Shown here in pieces: positions 11,354-62,400 of a stretch of 64,000 bases of DNA; positions within the stretch are counted from its first letter, which is position 1, and the number at the start of each line of letters is the position of its first letter. A program made the translations under genes and the position numbers. Under the pieces are notes generated by a model. It saw only the letters and a list, made by a program, of their open reading frames with translations, was not told the DNA's origin and did no database searches. The stretch comes from Podarcis vaucheri (lineage: Eukaryota), in assembly GCA_965113315.1 (NCBI GenBank), contig OZ220374.1; one strand, written 5' to 3'.

Positions 11354-11883
11354 CCGCATTTTTCGCCCTATAGGACGCACCGGTCCATAGGACGCACCTA
11401 GATTGGGGGGGGGGAATAAAGGGGGGAAATTATTTTTTTTCCCCAGGCGCGGGGCTGGGGAGGGGGAAGCCTGAGCTTCCCCCTCCCCCGGCCCCCAGAA
11501 CGGGACCCAGAGTGATGCCGAAGCTGCGTGCAGCTTTGGCATCGCTCTGGGAGCTTGCAGGGCTGGAGGAGGGGGAAGCCCTCCGCCAGCCTTCTAACCA
11601 AGTCTAACTGAGTTTGCGGGGCTGGCGACAGGGAGGAGCAGGCTTCTCCCCCCGCCAGCCTTCTAGCCAAGTCGGGGGACAGCGGGAAAGGCACGCTGCG
11701 CCTCCCGCTGTCCCCCGAGCTTGTGGGGCTGGCGGTGGGGCTCTGCTGAAGCCTGGAGAGGAGAGGGTGCCCTATCGCTCTCCAGGCTTCAGGAAAAGCC
11801 TGCATTCACCCCATAGGACGCACACACATTTCCCCTTCATTTTTGGAGGGGGGAAAGTGTGTCCTATAGAGCGAAAAATACGG
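11354..11883. mobile_element. Tc1/mariner-superfamily MITE (530 bp), GC-rich
   Basis: TA TSD on both sides. About 27-bp TIRs CCGCATTTTTCGCCCTATAGGACGCAC / rc CCGTATTTTTCGCTCTATAGGACACAC. Subterminal CCATAGGACGCAC repeats. Confidence 0.9.
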
Positions 11884-13597: not shown

Positions 13598-13920
13598 ACC
13601 TGTTTCACACTAAGCCAAATCATGACATAGCACAGAAGAGATCCTAGTGCTTAATTCTTCCTTGATTGTTTTGCTGCTATGTCACACTGAGATAAGTCAT
13701 AGTTTGGTTTAGTGTGCGATCTGAACCCAGGATTGTGGTTTAGCTCTTCTGGACAAACCACAAGCTGCAGCCACGGAACAAACCTTGGTTATAGTTTGTG
13801 GTTAGTCTGGAGAGAGCTAAACCACAAGCCTGGGTTTGGACAGCATGTTATGTAAAATTATGGCTTAGCTCAGTATGGCACAGGAGTGTGGTTTGGTTTA
13901 GCATGATGTGCAACCCAGGT
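13598..13920. repeat. Long imperfect palindrome, probably an old MITE
   Basis: Left arm AACCCAGGATTGTGGTTTAGCTCT..GGACAAACCACAAG is complementary to right arm TTTGTGGTTAGTC..AGAGCTAAACCACAAGCCTGGGTT. Symmetry continues outward with more mismatches. Confidence 0.7.
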
Positions 13921-38494: not shown

Positions 38495-38743
38495 AGCCAG
38501 TGTGGTGTAGTGGTTAAGAGCAATAGACTCGTAATCTGGGGAACTGGGTTCGCATCCTCGCTCCTCCACATGCAGCTGCTGGGTGACCTTGGGCCAGTCA
38601 CACTTCTCTGAAGTCTCTCAGCCCCACTCACCTCACAGAGTGTTTGTTGTGGGGGAGGAAGGGAAAGGAGAATGTTAGCCGCTTTGAGACTCCTTCGGGT
38701 AGTGATAAAGCGGGATATCAAATCCAAACTCTCTTCTTCTTCT
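38495..38743 (+). mobile_element. Near full-length tRNA-derived SINE (Squam3, lacertid type) with (CTT)n tail
   Basis: A-box TGGTGTAGTGG, B-box-like GGTTCGCATCC, CORE-like body and CTT tail. Nearly identical to the copy at 44233-44488. Confidence 0.9.
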
Positions 38744-44232: not shown

Positions 44233-44488
44233 AGAAGAAGAAGAAGAAGAGTTTGGATTTGATATCCCGCCTTTCACTCCCCTTCAGGAGTCTCAAAGCG
44301 GCCAACATTCTCCTTTCCCTTCCTCCCCCACAACAAACACTCTGTGAGGTGAGTGGGGCTGAGAGACTTCAGAGAAGTGTGACTGGCCCAAGGTCACCCA
44401 GCAGCTGCATGTGGAGGAGCGGAGACGCGAACCCGGTTCCCCAGATTACGAGACTACCGCTCTTAACCACTACACCACACTGGCTCTC
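44233..44488 (-). mobile_element. Full-length tRNA-derived SINE (Squam3, lacertid type) with (CTT)n tail
   Basis: The reverse complement begins GAGAGCCAGTGTGGTGTAGTGGTTAAGAGC and ends CAAACTCTTCTTCTT. CpGs are retained, which suggests a young copy. Confidence 0.92.
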
Positions 44489-49026: not shown

Positions 49027-49106
49027 CTTCCCTGATGGCTGTAAACGGAGTGCCTTCCTCCTCTTGAAGTCTAATCACCTTTAGCGCCACCAACTTTCCA
49101 TTTACC
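49027..49106 (-). CDS. CDK14: CDK14 coding exon (80 nt, phase 2/1): VNGKLVALKVIRLQEEEGTPFTAIRE
   Basis: Catalytic lysine (VALK) and the diagnostic PFTAIRE helix. Acceptor ctccag|G, donor GAAG|gtacac. Confidence 0.98.
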
Positions 49107-49181
49107 CTGGAGTAATGCAAACAAAACATTACACAAACAAAATTACGTTTAGCACATTTCAATAATAGGTTTTTCTATATA

Positions 49182-49411
49182 CAGTGGTGCCCCGCAAGAC
49201 GAATGCCTCGCAAGACAAAAAACTCGCTAGACGAAAGGTTTTTTCATTCGCGATTTGCCTCGCAAGACGAATTCCCCTATGGGCTTGCTTCGCAAGACGA
49301 AAACGTCTTGCGACTTTGTTAAACCGTTTAAACCGTGCTTCGCAAGAAGAAAAATTCGTTAGACGGCAAAAATTGCGGAACGAATTAATTTCGTCTTGCG
49401 GGGCACCACTG
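49182..49411. mobile_element. Tc1/mariner (Tigger-like) MITE, 230 bp, young
   Basis: TA TSDs. Perfect 22-bp TIRs CAGTGGTGCCCCGCAAGACGAA. Many internal CGCAAGACGAA repeats and intact CpGs. Confidence 0.93.
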
Positions 49412-51700
49412 TACAGAACATCCTATTTCTCTGGTCCAACTTCTGCCACCCATAAAAGCAAGATGCTAGCAGCTTTGAAATATTCAACTTATCAAATCTT
49501 TATCTCAGGTATACCAAATTATAGCATTAAAATAAAATGCTTTACAAAGTTAGAGTAATGAACTGATGACCTTCATTCGCCCCACATTTTGAGCTTTCAT
49601 TTTTTAAATTGTAGATCTCTAGTCCTCATAAAAAGAAATTTATGAAGCAAAATTTGCAGGTGCCCTTATAAGCAGTTTTTGTTATTTTTTGGTGAAATGT
49701 GCTGACATGCTTGCTCCCTAGTTGTCAATGTTTCTGTGAGTTGTGATTGATAAGTTCTAAATAATTTTGGGTTACTTCACAACACTGAGTATCTCTGCTA
49801 TATGATTCACCTCCCCATAGCTTTTTGGATTGAACAATTTTGCTGTAATTTGAGAGAGGCTTCAAGATTCAACTGATCATGGATAACTTGAGTACTGACC
49901 TTTGTTATTATTTATATGACCTATCATTATGAATTAAGAGCTGACCTAATAATTTTGTTAAGATTTTTAAAATACCTTTAGGGATGTGGGGTGAATAGTT
50001 ATTCAATCAGGTTTTCAGGTGGTTGAAAACAAACTGATTCAGTTAAAAGCAATATTGGTATGATTTTGCTTTTCCAGCTGTTTCTACTGATGCAATTTTA
50101 AATCCCCTCATGCCTTGTGAAACGTGCAGATGTGGCTATCACAGTATTTCCTTTCAGCCAATACAGGATAATTTGAGATGCTGAAAATGAACTACACAGC
50201 CTATTAAAATCTGCTTGTACATTTATTTGGAATGTAATCTGATCAGTATTTCCCAATAGTTTTTTCCATGTTTTTGGATGTTCTTAATTTTAAAAAAAAA
50301 TGTTTTAGATTCCTTTATTTTCAATTTCTTTGTTTTGTTGCCTTGATTGCCACCCTCGGCTCCTTCGGGAGGATGGGACAGAAGTTTAATAAGCACGCAC
50401 CATCTAGACTAGTTTACTTGATTTGTACCTCTTGAGCATTTGATTATTAAATAGCCATTGTTTGTAGAGCCACTATAGTGGAAAGAACCTGAGAAGAATA
50501 ACAGTTCTTATAATCTTTTGGACTAATTAATATAATCAAGACAAAAGATGTGTATAGTTGAAATGTTACATCACCCACCCTGATTACTACAATATTTTCC
50601 TCTTATATCTGTTCTTGTCTTCTTACTTCTATCCAGAACTCTGATACAAAAAGCTTTCATCACCCTATTAATTCAGACCAGACAGTGCTTTTCCCAAAGG
50701 CCCCAACGCTGGCTTCCTGTCAAATGAAACACATATTCTTCATCCTTAACTTCCATGGCCTTCCTCCTCTGTTCCCCCACAACCAGTCTCTGTCCCCATA
50801 TATTCTTGTCTAGGACCTTCACTTCTCCAGCTCCACCAGCTTCAGCTGAGGAAAGGCTTACGCTGACTTGGAACCTTTTATTTAAAAAGGAAAGAACCAT
50901 GCTGTTTCTTTATTGACTTCAGGCTGAGAAGAGAAGCCATATGTAAAAAACATGCTGGAGCTGTGCTTCCTCCCTCTATGTTTTATGGGTCTGAAAGGCT
51001 TTGGAAAGGCATGTTGCAATTTAGCATGTGGTCTGATTTCAAGCAAGCAGATGAGAACACACACCAAGTAAGGTTGAGGCATGCCCTACGTGCCGATAGT
51101 TGGACATGTGCAGACACATTCCTTCTTTTTTGGTGGGTGGGCAAAGAGCTGCATGAAATGGGCCCACATAGGTATATACATAACATACATAGGCAGATGC
51201 ACACCTACCACCTCACTATGATAAAATAGCGCTAACATAAAACTTTTCTAATAATTGGCTTTTCTCTTGAAAATTTACTTTGTGTATAACCTCTTAGTTA
51301 TGAAAAATAATGGGCTGCAGCCAGAAACCAATGCTACAACACAACTGGCACTGAAAGTGTTATATAAATGGTTCAAAAAACTAAAAGCATTTTCTTCCAA
51401 AACATAACTGTAGGTCACAGGCCTGCCAATATTGCTCTTTTGGCATTACTGCACTTAGTAATATCCTGCACTTAGCACAACAATAATGGGAAATGGGAAG
51501 AGGCTTGTACTGAATACTCTTCTTCATTCTCTCTACATACTAAAAACATTAGATTTAAAATTCAATCTAAAAAACAATTCAAAACGGTTACCTTCTACTC
51601 CTACCTCACAATATATTTTATTTAAAAATAGCGGAATTGTTTATGAAGCAGCTGGTCTGCATCACAAGTACATAAATGTACATGATAAAAATGTACTTAC

Positions 51701-51795
51701 TTGCTTTTCCCTTTATATACTGTGGCATATGAGCCTTCTCCCAGTTTTTCCAGTTTTTCATAAGAGTCTGCTTTTCCAAACTTGGGACTTGTTGG
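51701..51795 (-). CDS. CDK14: CDK14 coding exon (95 nt, phase 0/2): [31 protein letters not shown](K), glycine-rich ATP loop
   Basis: Manual translation gives [11 protein letters not shown]. Acceptor ttacttag|CCA, donor AA|gtaagt. The ORF track does not show this frame. Confidence 0.98.
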
Positions 51796-52199
51796 CTAAG
51801 TAAGAAAAGAAACGGAGAGATAAAATTTTCAGCACTCACACACTACCATTAACTATGTTGAGCCAACCCTATGAAGAACAACTGTTATTACCAAAACTAA
51901 TGAGATTATACTTTGGATATTTAATGCCTGACATTGTCAGGTACCAAGGGCAATGTCTAACGATATCCATTTAAATATCACTCAGCACTCCAGATGGTCA
52001 CTGCCTATTTCAACAGTATTCCTATGTCAGTGGAGTTGTCAGAAAGACTTAGCCCATACAGAAGAATGAAATTTGGATTTGTTGCAGAATTTCTGTAAAG
52101 ATGAGATTAACGAACAGCTGTACCAAGATGTCCAATTGAGCATGCTTTATTCATTAGACAGCATAACCAAAGTAATTTTTATTATTATTCATTGAACTT

Positions 52200-52645
52200 C
52201 TAAACCACTCTTCATCTAGGTGTCTCCCAGTTTACAATTATAAAATACAAATAAACTAACTATTTCAAACAGTAAAGCCAAAGTGTGAAAAAAGGGAAAC
52301 AAACAGAAGCACATCAGCAGACACAATAATCCCTGTACTCCAGCCCTGAGTAGTCTAATCAGCTCCTCCAAAGGTCTTGATGACAGATGTGTTTTTATCT
52401 GGCGCCAGAAGCCCAACAAAATAAGAAACCAACCACTCCACCAGGGGAAGGGAATACCACAATCAGGCACCACTACAGAAACCCATCCCTGTTGATAGAT
52501 CACTGACTAGGGCCCACTCCGCTGACCTCTATGTCTGGGTTAGCTGGTACAGGGACAAGCACTCCATCGGATAGTTGGGTCACAAGCCATTTAGCAATGT
52601 ATATGTAAATGCTATAAACTTGCTCAGTAGGCAGCAAATCCATTT
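52200..52645 (-). mobile_element. L2-clade LINE 3' fragment
   Basis: The minus strand shows a decayed end of L2 ORF2 (...AFTY..LNGL.P.Y...) followed by TTTCTGTAGTGGTGCC...TGTGGTATTCCCTTCCC and a T-rich UTR. Confidence 0.55.
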
Positions 52646-55258
52646 CATACTGTATGAACTAACACTTTCCAATATCTCCAGTGATACTGTTAAAAACGGC
52701 ATTGATCATCTGGAGTGCTCATATTTAGATGGAACTTATTCAACATCATTGTCCTTGGCATATAACAATGAAGTCCTTCGTTCTCAAGGCAACCAGAACA
52801 TTGCAAAAAGCTTTGACACATTTAAGGGGACGGGGAATCAAAGCCAAGTTTTTGAGCATGGATTGATTTCTAAACATTTATTTCAAATGTTTCTTGACAA
52901 GTTGGGGAAGGGAACCTATGGTCCAAGCCACTCTACTTTGCCCTAGGCCATATTTCCTTCCTAAGGTTTAGCAGCCCTGCTCTGCACTCTCCTGAAGTGC
53001 TTTTGAAGGACTGCAATGTGTTCTTCTACTGCAATAATACATTTTGCTTGCCAGGCTGGAAAGATGTGGGCATAAAAACCAGGGCCAAATCTAGGTTTCT
53101 GTGGGTGCGTCGGCAATGGTTGCCGGTGAACTCCTAGTCTGCTTGCTTTCATCTTCAAACTATACTTCTCCTCCCTCTTGGCCTCACCCTTTTAAAGTAA
53201 AACATAATCTTAACCAATAGAGCAACTTCCGATTGTCAAGCAAAAACATCATGAAACATTGGACTTTTGATATGATTGTCTTTTCCTCTTAATTGACTAG
53301 ATGAATACACCACCCCATGCATCCAAAATTAGCCTTTGGGTCTCCCTACTATCCCTCTCACTTTACATGTCCTTTCGAGGAGATAAAAACATAACATTTT
53401 TGTACATTTTACATTATTTTCTGTCCTGGGATACATTTCAAATAATCCTGGCTTAGCACTGTATATGAAATAGGTATTCTGGCTTACAAATAACTCTGGC
53501 CAATTGCTAAGCACGCTGGCTTGTTCAACTAAATATTTATTATTTGTCTATCACTGAAATTACTCATATTCTACTCGTTCTAAGAAATACAGTGATTGTT
53601 AGCAACTGCTACAGAATACTGAAAAAGTACTCAATATTTTTCTTGAAGGTCCTGTTCCACATGCCAATTAGCTACTGAACACTGTGAGTCTCAGTGCTGG
53701 ATTTGAGAGCCAGTGGCAACCCTGTGAACAGGCACAGGGTTGCCTGGTAGTCACTATGTCATTTGTGGCTAATGACATTTAGCCCTTTAGTTTTAATAAC
53801 AGAAATGTTTGTTACAGCATGATCATCTCATCCTGTACTCATAATCCAGGATTTAAACATGAACCAAAGATAACAAGGTTCCTCAATGGTTACTCCCTAG
53901 ATTAATTTAAGGTAACCTGTAAATTAAGAATTGCTACTTTCAACTAGCTGAAAGTTCTAAAAAGAGAACAACTAGCTAAAAGTTAAGCTGATTCATGAGT
54001 AATGCATGAAGCATGTTGAATTTGCCCAACAGCATTATTTTTTTCCAAATGCAGTGAGTGGGTTTCTTTTCCATTAAGGCACAGAATCACTAGGGGCAGG
54101 AGATGCTTTTGAGGAGTAGGCTGCCTGTACCAGAAGGACACAGTACATTTTTAAAGGATCAATTTTCACTGGCAGATCAACTCTAAAAAGAGCACTTTTA
54201 TAGCATGCAAAGGGGTATTTTAGCAAACATTTCTGAAAACACACATTTATTTCAACAAATACCACTATGTTTGTATTTTGCTTTGCTAATCTCAGGAAAT
54301 GTAGCACTACTCTAAAATGTCCAGAATTCTGAAATAATCTTTATCACGAAATTCCACTGACATAAATCAGAGTTTTATACATTTGAAAATTAAGTCTGCT
54401 TTATTTGCTCAAATATTTTATGGGAGCTAACAATTTAGCAGCAGAAATGGCTCCCACTCCTGTTCTGCTTTTTTCTCTACTATTGGCTGCCCTGAAACAC
54501 CAGCTTGATGAACTAAGGAATCTCATGGTATCTCGTAAAAACAAACATCACTACCTGTCTTATAAACAAGTATTAGAGTTTGAAAATAATGTTGTTCCAG
54601 AGCTCTAGAAAATGACCACGAAAGGAAAATTCTTGAAAGCCAGATTTTAATTTTCAACCAAATACTTTGCTTGTAATTTTTCACTAGTATACATCAAAAA
54701 GTTGACAGCTGAAAATGTTAACCAGTTAGTCAAAAGTTTTTAACTTTTAACAAACTTTTTAAATTGTTAACTGATTAATTAACTACTTAATTCCCATGAC
54801 CATTTGTATATGTTTGACCATTTGTATATTATTTATCAAGCAATCCGTTTTGATCTGCACATTATTCAATACAGCAAAAAAAAAAAAATATTCCCTGATG
54901 CAACTTTTTCAGACAGGTACATATATCTAAATAGGAAAACAAGCCTAAGGACCTGTGGAATTAATATACTTGGTTAGACAACAGAAGCGTAGCCCTTCTA
55001 CAAAGCACTGCATGTTGTTATGAAGAACCCAGAAGGAGACACAGGGAAGATTTAATCAACTCTCATTTTTTTAAAGGTGGCTGAAGAGGGTGCAAAAAAT
55101 ATTATCTCCCCCCCCCCCCCCAATATCTCAAGCCATGCTTGTAGGATATGCAAGGCTTCTGAATGAGTGGTTGTAATTTGAATTAAAGGACGAAAGAACA
55201 GCAGTTACTTCAAATGACCAGCAAAGGGCTAGGTCTTATTTATGTACTCTAGACTTAC

Positions 55259-55414
55259 GCTGATTTCTTTACTGCATCCCTCAGGGGGTTCAGACACCTC
55301 GCTGAAAATGGCATCTGGTCCCTCTGCTACAGAACTCAAGATGGTGGATGATTCCCCTGCCCTTGAATCACATACCTCTTCTGAAACAGAAGGGCTGAGG
55401 GGGGGCTTCATGTC
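55259..55414 (-). CDS. Candidate alternative in-frame CDK14 exon (156 nt, phase 0/0): DMKPPLSPSVSEEVCDSRAGESSTILSSVAEGPDAIFSEVSEPPEGCSKEIS
   Basis: Open frame and more GC-rich than its flanks. Consensus donor AGC|gtaagt and acceptor ttctcag|GAC, both phase 0 like the host intron. No transcript evidence is available. Confidence 0.5.
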
Positions 55415-58400
55415 CTGAGAACTCATGAGCGGTGTTTCCCATTACAAAAGGAGACAACACTTGTGTGTAAACTCCCACACCTATGCACTTTACCTCAGAA
55501 ACAGCCTCTGGGGTATTTTTAAGCTTTTCAAAGAACAGATTAGAACACCTTAAGAGGGTAAAATAACACCACCTCAAGAAGCCTTTTAAAACTGTAGTTT
55601 GTACGATACTACAAAAACAATGAATACCAACCCCCCCCCAAAAAAAACCCCACATGTGCCTTGTGTCAGCTTAAATGCACATTTAATTTTATTTACGTAT
55701 CATTAAAAACATTTATAAATGTTTTTAAATGGCTTCCTTCACTGGGTAAAGTTCACGAAGGACAATTGTAAAGATCTGGGCCTCCGCTCCTATTTATTTT
55801 GTCAACAAAGGCAACATTTAAGTGCCTGTGCATCTCTGCAACTAACACTATTATTTATTTTCTACTCTAAAATTAGAGTACATAATAAGCCTTTTAAAGA
55901 AGTGCCCAATCTCTTTACCTTTCACTTCAGAAAACAACTTAACAGCCAGGGAGATCATAAAATGAGTGGGTTGGAGGTAGAAAAAGCTTGTTTGTTTAGC
56001 AGTAAGATGTTTTAAAAACAGTTCCAAATTTGAAAGAGGGAGGAGCCATGCATGCAGAGGCTGTTCTCTATCACAGGCAAGAATCTGACTGAAAATATTG
56101 GAAAACTAATAAAAATTTATTTGACAAAAGAATCTGACTGAAAATAACGTTGAATCCCTCCGCCTTCTGACATGGATATCTTTCAGCAGCCTCCAAAGTT
56201 CAAGGGGAGGGCATTCCTGCTGAGATTCCAAAAATGGCACCATTAATTTCTCTTCAATTAATCTTTTGTCTATATCTTAAGTATTTTCCATACAGCCTTA
56301 TGAGAAATTAGTCAGTTTCCCCAGTGGTCAAAGAAACCTAGTTTGCCTGCAAAATTCTCAGATAAATGTCAGTGTCCAAAGTTAGACACAACTTTTAAAT
56401 ACAAATACATAAAGTTTTCCAGCTAATAAGGCTGTAACAAGTAATACAAAATAATTACAAACTACTATTTCTTTTTAATTACAAATAAAAATATGAGCCT
56501 TGTTAACGGGTTTTCTGGTCCTGAACAGAGGCCCTTACAGCAAAGTCCCACCTTTAAAGCCTAAATATTTACTTTAGTCTGTCCAATCAGACACACACAC
56601 ACACACATAATTAGATATGCTTAAAGTATTACAACTAGTAAAACCAACACAATAACCCCCCACATCTGAAAACTGTCAAAGACTCTTTGTGTGAATAACT
56701 GACATGTCCAGGAGTTGGGGAGTATCCGTTCTAGTTGGGGTTGGACTCCCTGTGAAGAAACAGGTTTCCCTTAGTCCCAGTTAACTTCTGGATAATTTCG
56801 CTGAAGCTTTCTCTTCCCATTAATAATATTTTTTTTCCTCATTAACTGATGGCAAATGGTCAAAAAAGTGCAGGAGAATTTTTTGTCACAGCACTAAAAA
56901 AGAGCACTGGAACTTGGGTAGATTGGATTGGCATCTCTATAGCTAGTGCAACATACAGATCATTTCTTGGTTACATACAAGACTAGTGGGTGGGGAGCCT
57001 AGTCCTACAGAGACATTGCCAACTTCCCTTCCCACATATTAATTCAGAATACAATTTCCTGGTACTGCATTGTCAGTCAAACTAATTAAAATCCATCCTC
57101 AGTAATTCAACATGAATTTAAAAAATAAGACTATAATATCACTTTGGGTGTACAAAAAGTCAGTAGAATTCCATCAGTTTTACTTTGTGTAGATGCAGTT
57201 GCCACTTAAGGGTTTTACCCTCTCCTAGTTTGGAAAAACAATGCTTTGTTGTGAAAAAAAATGCTTCTACCGGTTATATTTGCACATGCTCTTAGATTCA
57301 TATTCATTTTTCATAAAGTAACAGGATGCTAATGTTATGCTTAAAATATCTAGTTCTGAAATTGTGTCTAGGGATATGACATGTCCACAGGATATTAAAT
57401 CTCAATATAAAATTATCCATGGAGCAATAAACACGCTCACAGTGCCTCTGTAGAAGAATTTCAGTATCAATACTGAAGATCTTGTGTCCTCAAGAGAACT
57501 AATTTCACAGCAATAAAAAGAAAATCTGAAAGTAAAGGACAAATTCAACCTTTTGTGTTTTATTCATGGAAGCCTTTTTTTACAGCTGGTCAACTGAAGA
57601 GTTAAGTACATGGGATCACCTGTTTGGCTTTGACTGTGTGCAAAATACAAGCTATCTTGCATATCACAGTAATACTGTGATGTCTGGAATAAACACTAAG
57701 GACATTTGTAAACTGATGTCTCTTCTAGACAGAAAGTCTATTTAGGCAAGAGAGTGAAGGCACCTTTATCCAACGTGGCTCAGAAACAATTCTCTGAAAA
57801 GTGTCTAGTGATACTAGTCAACCTTAAACACTTTTTTCTTTCATTGAGAAAATGAAAATATTCTATTATTAACTGACTAGTAACCTGTAAGTAAATAGAT
57901 ACCATTTTCATTTTTATGGAATTTGTATTCTTTACCTCAAAGGTCACATTACTAGAGATTTATGCAATAGTGGGAAATAAAATGTCATTTTCATACACAA
58001 TAATTTGGCAGGACACCTCAGGGACAACTGCTGGCACACCAGTCATAAGCAAGGATGACATTTCATTTATCACTACTTTAAAAAGATAATACACCACATG
58101 GGGAAAGCATAACATGTTCTGAGAGCTTTGTCTGCTTCATGATTTCACAAACTATTGTGATTTGAGAAATGTTTGCTTGGTCATAATGTACTGTTTGACA
58201 AAGGTTCAGCATTGCCAATCCAGTGTTCCCGAAACAAAATTTCCAGCTTCTGATAAGAATAGTAAGTTTTTAATTTTAATTTTGTTCTGAAATATTTCTG
58301 ATGAAAAGGTAGCACACAGTTTTAAAATAAACTAGCCCGCCACACTCCAAAATTTGAACTGTGGTATATACAGTAATTAATAAAAAAATCTCTATTAATC

Positions 58401-58753
58401 TTCTAAACTAACAAGAAACACCCCAAACTAGATGTTTCCTAGTATTAACAAACAATCTACTTTTTATGTTAGACAGAATTCATAACCGTTTCAGAGGATG
58501 GTAAAACAAGGATAACAACCTTCTGAGAACACAGCTCATTCAATGGAAGACAATATAATGATACTGAACCAATCTGGATCATGTTTATCTAAGACTAAAA
58601 TTGCACATAATGAAAGCAGAGCGATATGGTTCTTTTAAAAATACACACAATCTCAGCATACCGCTTTAAGTGACGTTGCTATTAAAAGCACCAAAACATT
58701 TGGAACTTGGATGGAGAATTTAGTTGAGATAAATATGGCATGTCTGGACTTAC

Positions 58754-58999
58754 AGAGCTAGGACTGGAATGTCGTCTGATTTTAGGAGATTCTTTCCCAG
58801 TGGATGAAGTCTTGAAGTTAATGCAGGCATTGTTCTCTGAATGGACCCTCTTCACTTGATTATTTGGCTTTTCAAATGGATCAAAAGTGCTCTGTGTCCT
58901 TTGAACTCTGACTTTTTTGTCTTCTGGAATTGTGTCCAAGGGCTTGATCACAGAATCCATTCCTTGGCAATTCCGTGTAGACATCTTTGTGACACATAT
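58754..58999 (-). CDS. CDK14: CDK14 coding exon (246 nt, phase 0/0): ICVTKMSTRNCQGMDSVIKPLDTIPEDKKVRVQRTQSTFDPFEKPNNQVKRVHSENNACINFKTSSTGKESPKIRRHSSPSS
   Basis: The translation matches the CDK14 N-terminal extension. Acceptor ...ttccttag|ATA, donor TCT|gtaagt. Contains an in-frame ATG at 58984 (MSTRNCQG) and the RHSSPSS motif. Confidence 0.98.
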
Positions 59000-59210
59000 C
59001 TAAGGAAGGAAAGGAAAAATACGTATTAAATAACTTGATAAGTTACCATTGCTCAGGACCAAACAAAGCATTACCAGAGGGTGGGGGTAGACTGTGTTTC
59101 CAGCTCCAGTTGTACCACTAACATAGGACATGAGATGCATATGGTACAAAAAAAGCAGCAGGCAGGTGGGTCATGGTTAACCATCTCCAACCCTCCAATT
59201 CTCCCATATA

Positions 59211-59446
59211 CAGTGGTGCCCCGCAAGACGAATGCCTCGCAAGACGAAAAACTCGCTAGACGAAAGGGTTTTTCGGTTTTGCGTTGCTTCGCTAGACGAA
59301 TTTCCCTATGGGCTTGCTTCGCAAGACGAAAACGTCTTGCGCTTTTTTCTTAAAGCCGCTTGAAGAGGCGCAGTTGCGACGGACCGTGCTTCGCAAGACG
59401 AAAAGACTCGCGGAACGAATTATTTTCGTCTTGCGAGGCACCACTG
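59211..59446. mobile_element. Tc1/mariner (Tigger-like) MITE, 236 bp, same family as 49182-49411
   Basis: TA TSDs. TIRs CAGTGGTGCC(C/T)CGCAAGACGAA. 5' half nearly identical to the 49182 copy. Confidence 0.93.
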
Positions 59447-62400
59447 TAAATTATTAAAAGATTTCCAGCTACGCTCTAATAATAGAAGAGAACCCAGTTA
59501 AGGTACAAACTGAAGAAGTATGCTGGCAAGAATGCGTGGGCATAGGAGAAATTAAGCATCCTCCCTCTTACCTGCAAATCCTTCCTGAACACTCTTTCCC
59601 ACCTTTAATCATGTTTCACCATGTAACATTTACCGTACTTTGACTCCTTAGTGTTTTATAATTAAATAATAATAAGTATTCAAGTGTCATTTATTCTGAA
59701 ACATTGAATATACTTATTAATTCTGAAAAGTCACAAATTACACTGTTGTATTTAAATAAAAATAAACAGCAGAAGAATATAAATATATTAATAATACTAA
59801 TTAAAGGGGAAAGTACAGATTTGGAAGTCTTGATAAAAGCCTTATGTAAACTTTATCAGCATAAATGCCAGATCACTAAGTCTTACTGTCCAGTCACTGA
59901 TATCTGCTGCAAAGTATTGATTTCCATTTCTCTAAAATTAGATGAGGCCAAATTAAATAAATTGACTTATGTCAATTTAAGTCATCTTACTGTAGCATGC
60001 CTTACATAATTGTTTCATAGAGCAATGTGTATATAGCTGAATTACTTTAAGACTTGGAAAATCCAATTGGTAAAACCATACCCTATCCCTGAACCAGTGG
60101 AGGCAACATTCAGTAGTTCAATAACGCACAACATTTCTCAGGTCTTTACTTTTCCAGCAATCAGCATGAATTTTGCTACCTCCTTAAGTCTTATGATCCA
60201 ATCCCAAGGCCATGAACTATGTAGTTTATTCACAAAATTATTATTTTCATTGGGAAGTGAGTATCGACAAAATGGTGGGCCAACACCATTTTTTGTGGTT
60301 GAAGCACAAAAGAATCTCTATCTAGCCTTGGGATAATTCACTTCAAAGTGTTGCCTTCATGTTTAAGTCTAGTGGTATAAACACTTTCTAAAAGCACATT
60401 ATTCCTCAAAGTGCATATCCTGATTTTATTACTTCAAATCCAATTTATTTCAATTGTTCTCAGACAGCAGACTTTATTCAAATGTAATATGCTAGTCACA
60501 GAGTGGTTGTTCTAAACCTCTAAAGTTTCCAAATAGTACTCCACAGAAGTAGAGGAGACTCTTAGATTTGCAATTATCAGAAAGGAGAACTGATGTAATC
60601 TCCTTGTATATCTGGGTAGGAGCTCCTAAAAGGAAGATGAGAAGCCAGTTCCAAAGCACACAAGTATGCATTTTTATTTGTACATTAAATGCAATACTTT
60701 AAAAATGGAATTGCAAAAATAATCTCCAGGTTGTTCTTCACATTTGTGAGATGATCTCCAAAGCCAGTACATTCCAAGGAACGACCACGTCAACAGCTAT
60801 TAGTTGTTTGTGAATTAAGTATTTTATTAACTTATGGATTCAGAGCAATTAGCTACCTTCTAAAGCCTAAGCGTGTTCCAGCAAGTCCTTGAAAATGGTA
60901 TTGCCATCACCTGTGGTGCTCATCGCTGGAGGAAGCCTAGAAGTGCAGACTATTATAGATCCATAATACAAGCATAAAATGCTTCCCCAAAATAGTAAGA
61001 CTATATCTCACCAAAAAGGCTTCCTTTGCAGTGTAACAAGAAACCAATGGATCTGTATACCAATAAACATTTCAAATTCAAAATAGTTTAAACAATAAGA
61101 CTAGCTTACTTTGAAATACAATTCTGCAAAAAAGCAAGAGATATAGAAAGTAGCACTAAAAGGACCTCTTTCCAGACAATGCCTCTAGTATAAAAACTGA
61201 ATTCAAAGACACAGTTAAATAATATGTATGGTCCAATGAACTCCAAGATGCATGTGGTAGGCCCTTACACAATTCTACAACCAGAATGGCTAGAAGATCT
61301 AATCATTAAATCTGAATGCTACAACTTCGTGGCGCATATCACTCTGCATCAGTTGTGATAGTTGATGCAAGAGCAGAGTCAAAAAATCTCTGGCTACCTA
61401 AATCAATTATTATATTGCACAGGTAAGGTTTTTGCTTTCACTATAACCTGCCACTATGACCCAAATATCAAATATTGATATTTGATAACAAAGACAAGAT
61501 TATATATGCACATTATGTGCATGATATCCTCCAGCTTCACAGATGCTGTTAGTCCTTTTGCATATATGCAAAATGAGATGGAGAGCTATAATGTTTATGT
61601 TGCAAATGTAACTTAATTGTTAGCTACTTTAAAACAGATAAAGGCAGTACACAGAAGGTTGCCATGATTAGCCGTGCACTGAATCCTGATTGTAATTTAC
61701 TCTAGAGAATTCATCTTCCCTTACATTGAAAATAACTTTGTAAAATACCTGCTGCCATCGATTTTATCTGGCTCAGCAAAAGCAATAGTTTAAGATGAGA
61801 TATGCTAGGCAAGAGGTTATCTCCTTGCATGCAAAATGCAGCCATGATCCAATATTGATTGCAACTATTATTTTATTTAAAAAAAACACGTTTTGTACTA
61901 AGACAAAGTCTAAACCAAGTCTCACCACTACTCCAAGGGTTTCCTCTACAGAAACAACTGAATGAAGTTATTCAATAATTTAAGAATATCCACTGAAATA
62001 AATAAATGCCTAGCTGTATAAATGGCAAACCATAGCCAACAACCCTTGGGCAAGAGAGCGCTGACCTCAGTACAGGAAAGCAAACACAAAAGTCTGCTGT
62101 AGGTGTACAAAATTCATTGCCGTCAAGATCCGTACAAAGAGAGTCTCAATACAGAGATCTCCACTTCACAATGGCAGGCTGCTTGTCTTGATGCTGCATT
62201 TATGGAAATCACATATGATACCCTATCAGGAAGAGTGAAAGAGTATAAGAATTCATTTAACAGAGGCAGAGAGAAGAAACACCATGGTGTATCTTTAATA
62301 GTGAATCTGGACACCCTTCATCTGCCTCAGCTGCAATAAAACATGTCTCTCTCGTACTGGTCTCTACAGCTACAGCAGGTGCTGCAACTCTCTGATGGTT

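Follow-up and report, generated by a model that had tools for sequence, protein, structure and literature searches.

The locus raises the question whether a CDK14 intron in a lizard holds an additional in-frame exon just before the start of the kinase domain. In the window, i.e. the whole stretch of 64,000 nucleotides that was analysed, eight CDK14 exons were found in order on the minus strand by tblastn with the Zootoca vivipara CDK14 model (P0122, XP_034985873.1), and the exon near 49100 encodes the PFTAIRE motif. The intron in question lies between the following two exons, which identify the gene as CDK14 with its PFTAIRE kinase domain:

58754 to 58999, minus strand: constitutive CDK14 exon ending in RHSSPSS (246 nt), followed by a phase-0 GTAAGT donor

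51701 to 51795, minus strand: constitutive CDK14 exon starting with PTSPKFGK, the start of the kinase domain, behind a phase-0 acceptor

The host intron between exons 58999-58754 and 51795-51701 measures 6,958 nt, and both junctions are in phase 0. Canonical vertebrate CDK14 (PFTK1), for example the Zootoca model, represents the same gene with flanking-exon translations that are identical letter for letter, in keeping with the lacertid-type lizard assumed in the first-pass annotation; it joins RHSSPSS straight to PTSPKFGK, whereas the block described below would intervene. The sequence of this junction is unchanged from sharks to mammals.

The first-pass annotation had proposed a GC-richer island within this intron as an unannotated cassette exon. 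The respective features are:

55259 to 55414, minus strand: candidate cassette exon of 156 nt encoding 52 aa, phase 0/0, acidic and Ser/Pro-rich, recognized from the sequence and from its homologs P0112 and P0138

55253 to 55258, minus strand: consensus donor GTAAGT, a hexamer identical to the donors of both flanking exons

Indeed, we could validate the proposed structure with regard to coordinates and translation, i.e. a stop-free block of 52 codons in phase 0/0 on the minus strand (55414-55259), with an acceptor TTCTCAG/GAC (exon start 55414) and a donor AGC/GTAAGT (exon end 55259), and with a frame that remains open upstream as far as a TAA at 55444-55442, which lies behind a pyrimidine tract. 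The block thus combines a length divisible by three, the phase of the host intron, a stop-free frame and a canonical donor, and since both flanking junctions are in phase 0, its inclusion would preserve the reading frame. The GC enrichment holds as well: the GC content from 55438 to 55259 is 0.517 versus 0.367 for the intron, of which the block is the GC peak, and values of at least 0.51 occur in 3 of 339 overlapping 180-nt intron tiles (the tiles covering the block itself are counted among the 339). Of the 12 minus-strand GTAAGT sites, 2 are preceded by at least 150 nt that follow a YAG and are open in phase 0, namely those of the real exon ending at 58754 and of the candidate block; none of the 6 plus-strand sites is. 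With the looser donor GTRAG, the same open-frame pattern turns up at 4 of 105 sites on the minus strand and at 5 of 76 on the plus strand and is thus no rarity. The features of the block are therefore by themselves at most suggestive of an exon, and it is a homolog from a skink that carries the case.

Searches beyond the locus returned little. There is no second copy of the block within the 64-kb window, no Rfam covariance-model match at E 1 in 51800-58700, and no Pfam match for the insert encoded by the block or for P0138. The ESM Atlas gave no usable match for the insert, none of 82 pattern matches in metagenome contigs was confirmed, and phage DNA held nothing matching.

The homolog is part of a CDK14 model of the skink Lerista edwardsae (lerEdw1_020429, KAJ6666705.1; P0112), which carries an insert of 67 aa between HSSPSS and PTSPK, exactly at the junction of the block. 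Aligned with the window from 55438 to 55259, the skink insert is 37% identical end to end, with 21 identical columns that span the first to the last codons. The global alignment score of 50 (shuffle mean -12) was reached in none of 10,000 shuffles and the local score of 55 in 9 of 10,000, and the best of 63,820 60-aa tiles, taken from all six frames of the whole window, starts at 55438 with a score of 50, followed by a runner-up at 18. Parts of the insert map consistently when placed by minimal nucleotide differences: its 25-aa core has a unique best place at 55405 among 63,925 minus-strand positions, its last 10 residues have a shared local optimum at 55288, ending at 55259, and its first 11 residues fit best locally at 55438, both in the frame of the core. 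In a tblastn search with the skink insert the block ranks first in the window, yet with an E value of 0.35, so that the signal depends on the end-to-end alignment together with the shared position.

Both inserts are acidic and Pro/Ser-rich (D+E = 12 and P = 7 in each) and occupy the same CDK14 junction in the same phase; they differ in length, the Lerista insert comprising 67 aa and the block 52 aa, or 60 aa if counted from a presumed old acceptor. From the sequence comparison we conclude that the block is orthologous DNA shared with the skink, whose model keeps the frame open at the protein level and in one named species. The split between skinks and lacertids is roughly 150-190 million years old. 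Unlike a described isoform, the Lerista entry is a truncated gene model at the protein level, a 'hypothetical protein' of 265 aa that stops early in the kinase domain, in sequence that is not CDK14. Since it is truncated and ends in this way, it looks like an ab initio prediction and documents an open frame between splice-like sites rather than expression; a search for literature on the Lerista genome annotation found none. The AlphaFold model of P0112 (mean pLDDT 43, with a poor kinase half as well) was set aside as uninformative on the insert.

We also surveyed CDK14 proteins at this junction, using a set of 139 that comprised 120 of the 170 matches to the upstream exon and 19 others. Both flanks are spanned by 108 of them, of which 106 have nothing in between and two have additional letters. 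A skink-type insert occurs in one of the 108, Lerista P0112. In a sturgeon model (P0001) the letters at the junction are a tandem duplicate of the upstream exon, and the model, which is flagged as contaminated, was rejected; 29 other non-canonical rows at the junction represent intron read-throughs, skips or variants and not inserts. Models without the insert include Zootoca X1 (472 aa, a lacertid RefSeq entry), Salvator, Heteronotia and Naja, and the CDK14 models of other lizards imply, at the sequence level, that the exon is skipped. Searching the window insert against proteins of 108-2000 aa gave none among 29 candidates at E 0.01, although clustering of the proteins at 90% can hide an insert isoform (in one CDK14 cluster, 15 of 423 members were listed) and the search missed P0112, too. 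In the open-access library we found no report of an exon or CDK14 insert at the RHSSPSS/PTSPK junction, and the available portions of PMC7432401 and PMC13478576 hold nothing on CDK14 isoforms.

A profile built from the two inserts was searched against 1.84 billion representatives and yielded three matches, P0112 (itself in the profile), P0138 and P0139. The last one, a hypothetical protein from a plant whose acidic repeat is rich in Pro, was rejected as a compositional match. P0138, a Logan open reading frame on a contig of 1215 nt, matched with E values of 9.6e-8 and 3.0e-8 and represents a third homolog; it is closer to the skink insert, with which it shares a repeated SATIL motif, than to the block. 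P0138 is unspliced and open across the region. At the position where reading through a GT would produce Val, it has Ala, with no evident donor there, and its likeness to the window continues for 8 codons past the donor:

55232 to 55255, minus strand: intron flank 3' of the donor in which similarity to the read-through part of P0138 persists (over 24 nt, 7 minimal differences, the best value among 91 local starts)

The Ala and the likeness past the donor fit either a decaying exon or a conserved non-coding block. According to the latter explanation, the block would be a non-coding element of the intron that changes slowly, or else the remains of an old transposon, with frames that are open by chance and a false exon call in the skink. 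This is consistent with the ab initio appearance of the skink model and with the chance exon-like patterns at 5 of the 76 plus-strand GTRAG sites, and also with the degree of amino acid identity: in simulations, neutral drift at about 0.5 substitutions per site gives about 39% identity, compared with the 37% observed, so that the peptide sequence is not visibly constrained. The reading frame tells a different story. The skink insert follows the same frame from the first to the last codon and differs in length by whole codons, the frame is open in all three homologous sequences, and both ends of the block coincide with the ends of the skink exon; moreover, the block is single-copy in the window and has no Pfam or Rfam match. 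In the neutral simulations, both copies remained stop-free, with the GT kept and no frameshifting indel, with probabilities of 7e-3, 2e-3 and 4e-5 at assumed indel/substitution ratios of 0.03, 0.05 and 0.1, respectively, i.e. at most 7e-3 at matching divergence, although these odds are exaggerated, since it was their open frames that drew attention to both copies, the skink GT is inferred from the model, and compensating frameshifts may be hidden. Retention of frame and donor by drift alone is therefore unlikely, and at the level of sequence it is the frame, not the amino acid identity, that argues for selection. Taken together, we regard a purely non-coding origin of the block as unlikely.

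In the reading that we prefer, the block is probably an old lizard CDK14 cassette exon that is minor or decaying, in agreement with the earlier suggestion of a lineage-specific or decaying ancestral exon, which gains support from the homologous skink insert at the same junction and from the third homologous open frame. The block would already have been an exon before the skink and the window's lineage separated, and selection would have preserved its frame, acidity and proline content, but not its exact sequence.

For the 3' splice site of such an exon, the following features are relevant:

55444 to 55459, minus strand: pyrimidine-rich tract before the presumed old acceptor (12 pyrimidines at -20 to -4 of 55438)

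55439 to 55441, minus strand: TGG at the 3' splice site as placed by the skink alignment, the best 60-aa tile starting at 55438; putatively a lost acceptor

55415 to 55438, minus strand: 24 nt, open in frame and ending in CAG, whose aligned counterpart in the skink is residues 1-8 of the insert

By minimal differences, the best position for the start of the skink exon is 55438, directly behind the TGG (12 differences versus 13 at 55414, a thin margin in a protein-level alignment). The first-pass annotation had placed the old acceptor at the TAA (55444-55442), which is probably off, as this triplet lies one codon upstream of the TGG and fits the alignment less well. Judging from the sequence, it is the TGG at 55441-55439 that probably marks the old acceptor, which probably was lost in the window's lineage, so that the CAG 24 nt downstream would have to substitute for it. 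In the proposed course of events, the window's lineage would have lost the old acceptor and would use the in-frame CAG, by which the exon would have been shortened from 180 to 156 nt. This CAG (55416-55415) is the only in-frame YAG at least 60 nt upstream of the donor within the open frame. It is a weak acceptor, with 11 pyrimidines at -20 to -4 compared with 15 and 17 for the flanking exons; an out-of-frame AG lies 7 nt upstream of it, and a better pyrimidine tract, ending in the TGG, is found 24-30 nt upstream. The CAG aligns with a Gln codon of the skink, and the fallback acceptor may accordingly be old.

These observations bear on two fates of the exon. A true cassette exon of the lizard ancestor could be dead or dying in the window's lineage, the TGG being recent and the frame and donor being leftovers that have not yet eroded. 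Such a loss would account for the TGG behind an orphaned pyrimidine tract, for the weakness of the fallback CAG, for the lacertid RefSeq model X1 without the insert and for the missing evident donor of P0138, as if decay were under way in more than one lineage. On the other hand, frame and donor are intact, the latter perfectly so, and an in-frame CAG is available that aligns with the skink Gln codon and may thus have served for long. We consider the loss of the exon rather doubtful, although less so than a non-coding origin; if dead in this lineage, the block would provide a small, datable case of exon loss. Somewhat better supported by the sequence, at a confidence that stays a little below even, is the candidate reading that the block is an old lizard cassette exon whose inclusion persists at a low level or in particular tissues. 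If true, it would be an example of an exon that is retained for its frame and composition despite turnover of its acceptor.

Lineage-specific symmetric cassette exons that encode disordered, phospho-rich segments form a general class. The block resembles this class in its phase (0/0), its weak acceptor, the insertion into a linker and its fast sequence change, and low inclusion is a further property of the class; in contrast to the class, the block is known from sequence, and its acceptor has seemingly turned over.

A good donor combined with a poor acceptor would also be expected if the block were an alternative first exon, with an intronic transcription start and with translation from an ATG of the block giving rise to an N-terminally truncated, kinase-only CDK14. 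In-frame ATGs are present at 55426 and 55411, and P0138 likewise has a Met, in frame, close to where its homologous part begins. The proposal that the ATG at 55426 serves as an alternative start found no support in the comparison, since the two ATGs align with Ser and Val of the skink, respectively, i.e. there is no conserved in-frame start codon; furthermore, in the skink model the block serves as an internal exon, and no GC-rich, promoter-like stretch lies upstream of the block. A third ATG, at 55442, is in good context and opens a Met-Gly frame of 24 codons (55442-55371, minus strand), which probably arose as a side effect of the presumed change at the acceptor. This frame leads to a further splice-like site:

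55370 to 55375, minus strand: donor-like GTATGT inside the block, behind GAG, in phase 0 in the main frame, which would yield a short form of 39 nt and 13 aa

The skink has a Pro at about the position of the GTATGT, and the internal donor is therefore probably not shared with it. Spliced from this donor, translation from ATG 55442 would enter the next exon in a frame other than that of the kinase and terminate there, for which reason we rejected this ATG as the origin of a myristoylated alternative N-terminus. Overall, an alternative first exon appears very unlikely.

If the block is included as a cassette exon, the insert would follow the RRHS motif and precede the FGK at the start of the kinase domain, and inclusion would place 52 probably disordered residues between this motif and the kinase N-lobe. 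The first-pass annotation gives RHSSPSS as the reported 14-3-3 site of PFTK1. In the literature searched, as far as the sources were available, this assignment was not found; what is documented there are 14-3-3 motifs at S119 and S153 of CDK16 and the binding of 14-3-3 to phosphorylated cyclin Y. N-terminal insert isoforms of CDK16 and CDK18 have been reported as well, of which our literature search found none. A parallel is the N-terminal extension of CDK16, which is located at a place equivalent to that of the insert, just before FGK, and which, unlike the latter, involves no alternative exon. According to the available parts of the respective studies, this extension (residues 109-165, about 55 residues) is required for cyclin Y binding (PMC13168255; PDB 9r2i), with R147, R150 and G158 being important for binding and S119 and S153 being PKA/14-3-3 sites (PMC13168255; PMC4613515). 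It is described there as conserved among the PCTAIRE kinases CDK16-18, CDK14 not being shown (PMC13168255). CDK14 itself binds cyclin Y, an interaction helped by 14-3-3 once cyclin Y is phosphorylated and carries it, and LRP5/6 are among the substrates of the kinase, as stated in the part of the source available (PMC11734941).

In a comparison by hand, the RRHS of CDK14 resembles the RRVS of CDK16 and is located four residues further from FGK; inclusion of the block would shift it by another 52 residues. By analogy with CDK16, inclusion would most likely weaken or retune activation by cyclin Y/14-3-3 while leaving the catalytic domain whole, although the pre-kinase stretch of CDK14 differs from that of CDK16, which weighs against the analogy. 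A kinase-off isoform need not be inert, since C. elegans CDK-14 works in axon regeneration without kinase activity (PMC8496196, in the part available). The furthest-reaching proposal is that the block has been a tissue-regulated switch exon of lizard CDK14 since the skink-lacertid split, with selection on frame, charge and proline only and with turnover of the acceptor, and that its inclusion separates the linker to which cyclin Y/14-3-3 dock from the N-lobe, so that the resulting isoform, either insensitive to cyclin Y or kinase-off, would retune Wnt signalling; as a whole, we judge this scenario to be improbable. If the block is spliced in, it would define an undescribed isoform of a nearly invariant kinase at the place where the related CDK16 binds its activator, and nature would have supplied the material for testing if activation of CDK14 by cyclin Y requires the pre-kinase linker. 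Either outcome concerns a detail at the level of lineages and no new kind of system.

Some further observations concern the surroundings of the block. A Sceloporus model (P0003) reads through the upstream donor, and about 20 of its codons are closely similar to the read-through of the window (58753-58685, minus strand), from which it appears that the 5' flank of the CDK14 intron is likewise well conserved in lizards. An element of 245 nt occurs once on either side of the studied exons, at 59206-59448 and 49177-49413, with 81% identity between the copies. Another element, of 250 nt, is present in two inverted copies at 44236-44485 and 38495-38743 that are 94% identical, and it is probably a young SINE or LINE fragment. 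Finally, stretches that are palindromic or contain inverted repeats, as is typical of small DNA transposons, were observed at 838-1023, 13674-13886, 11475-11739 and 51932-52770.
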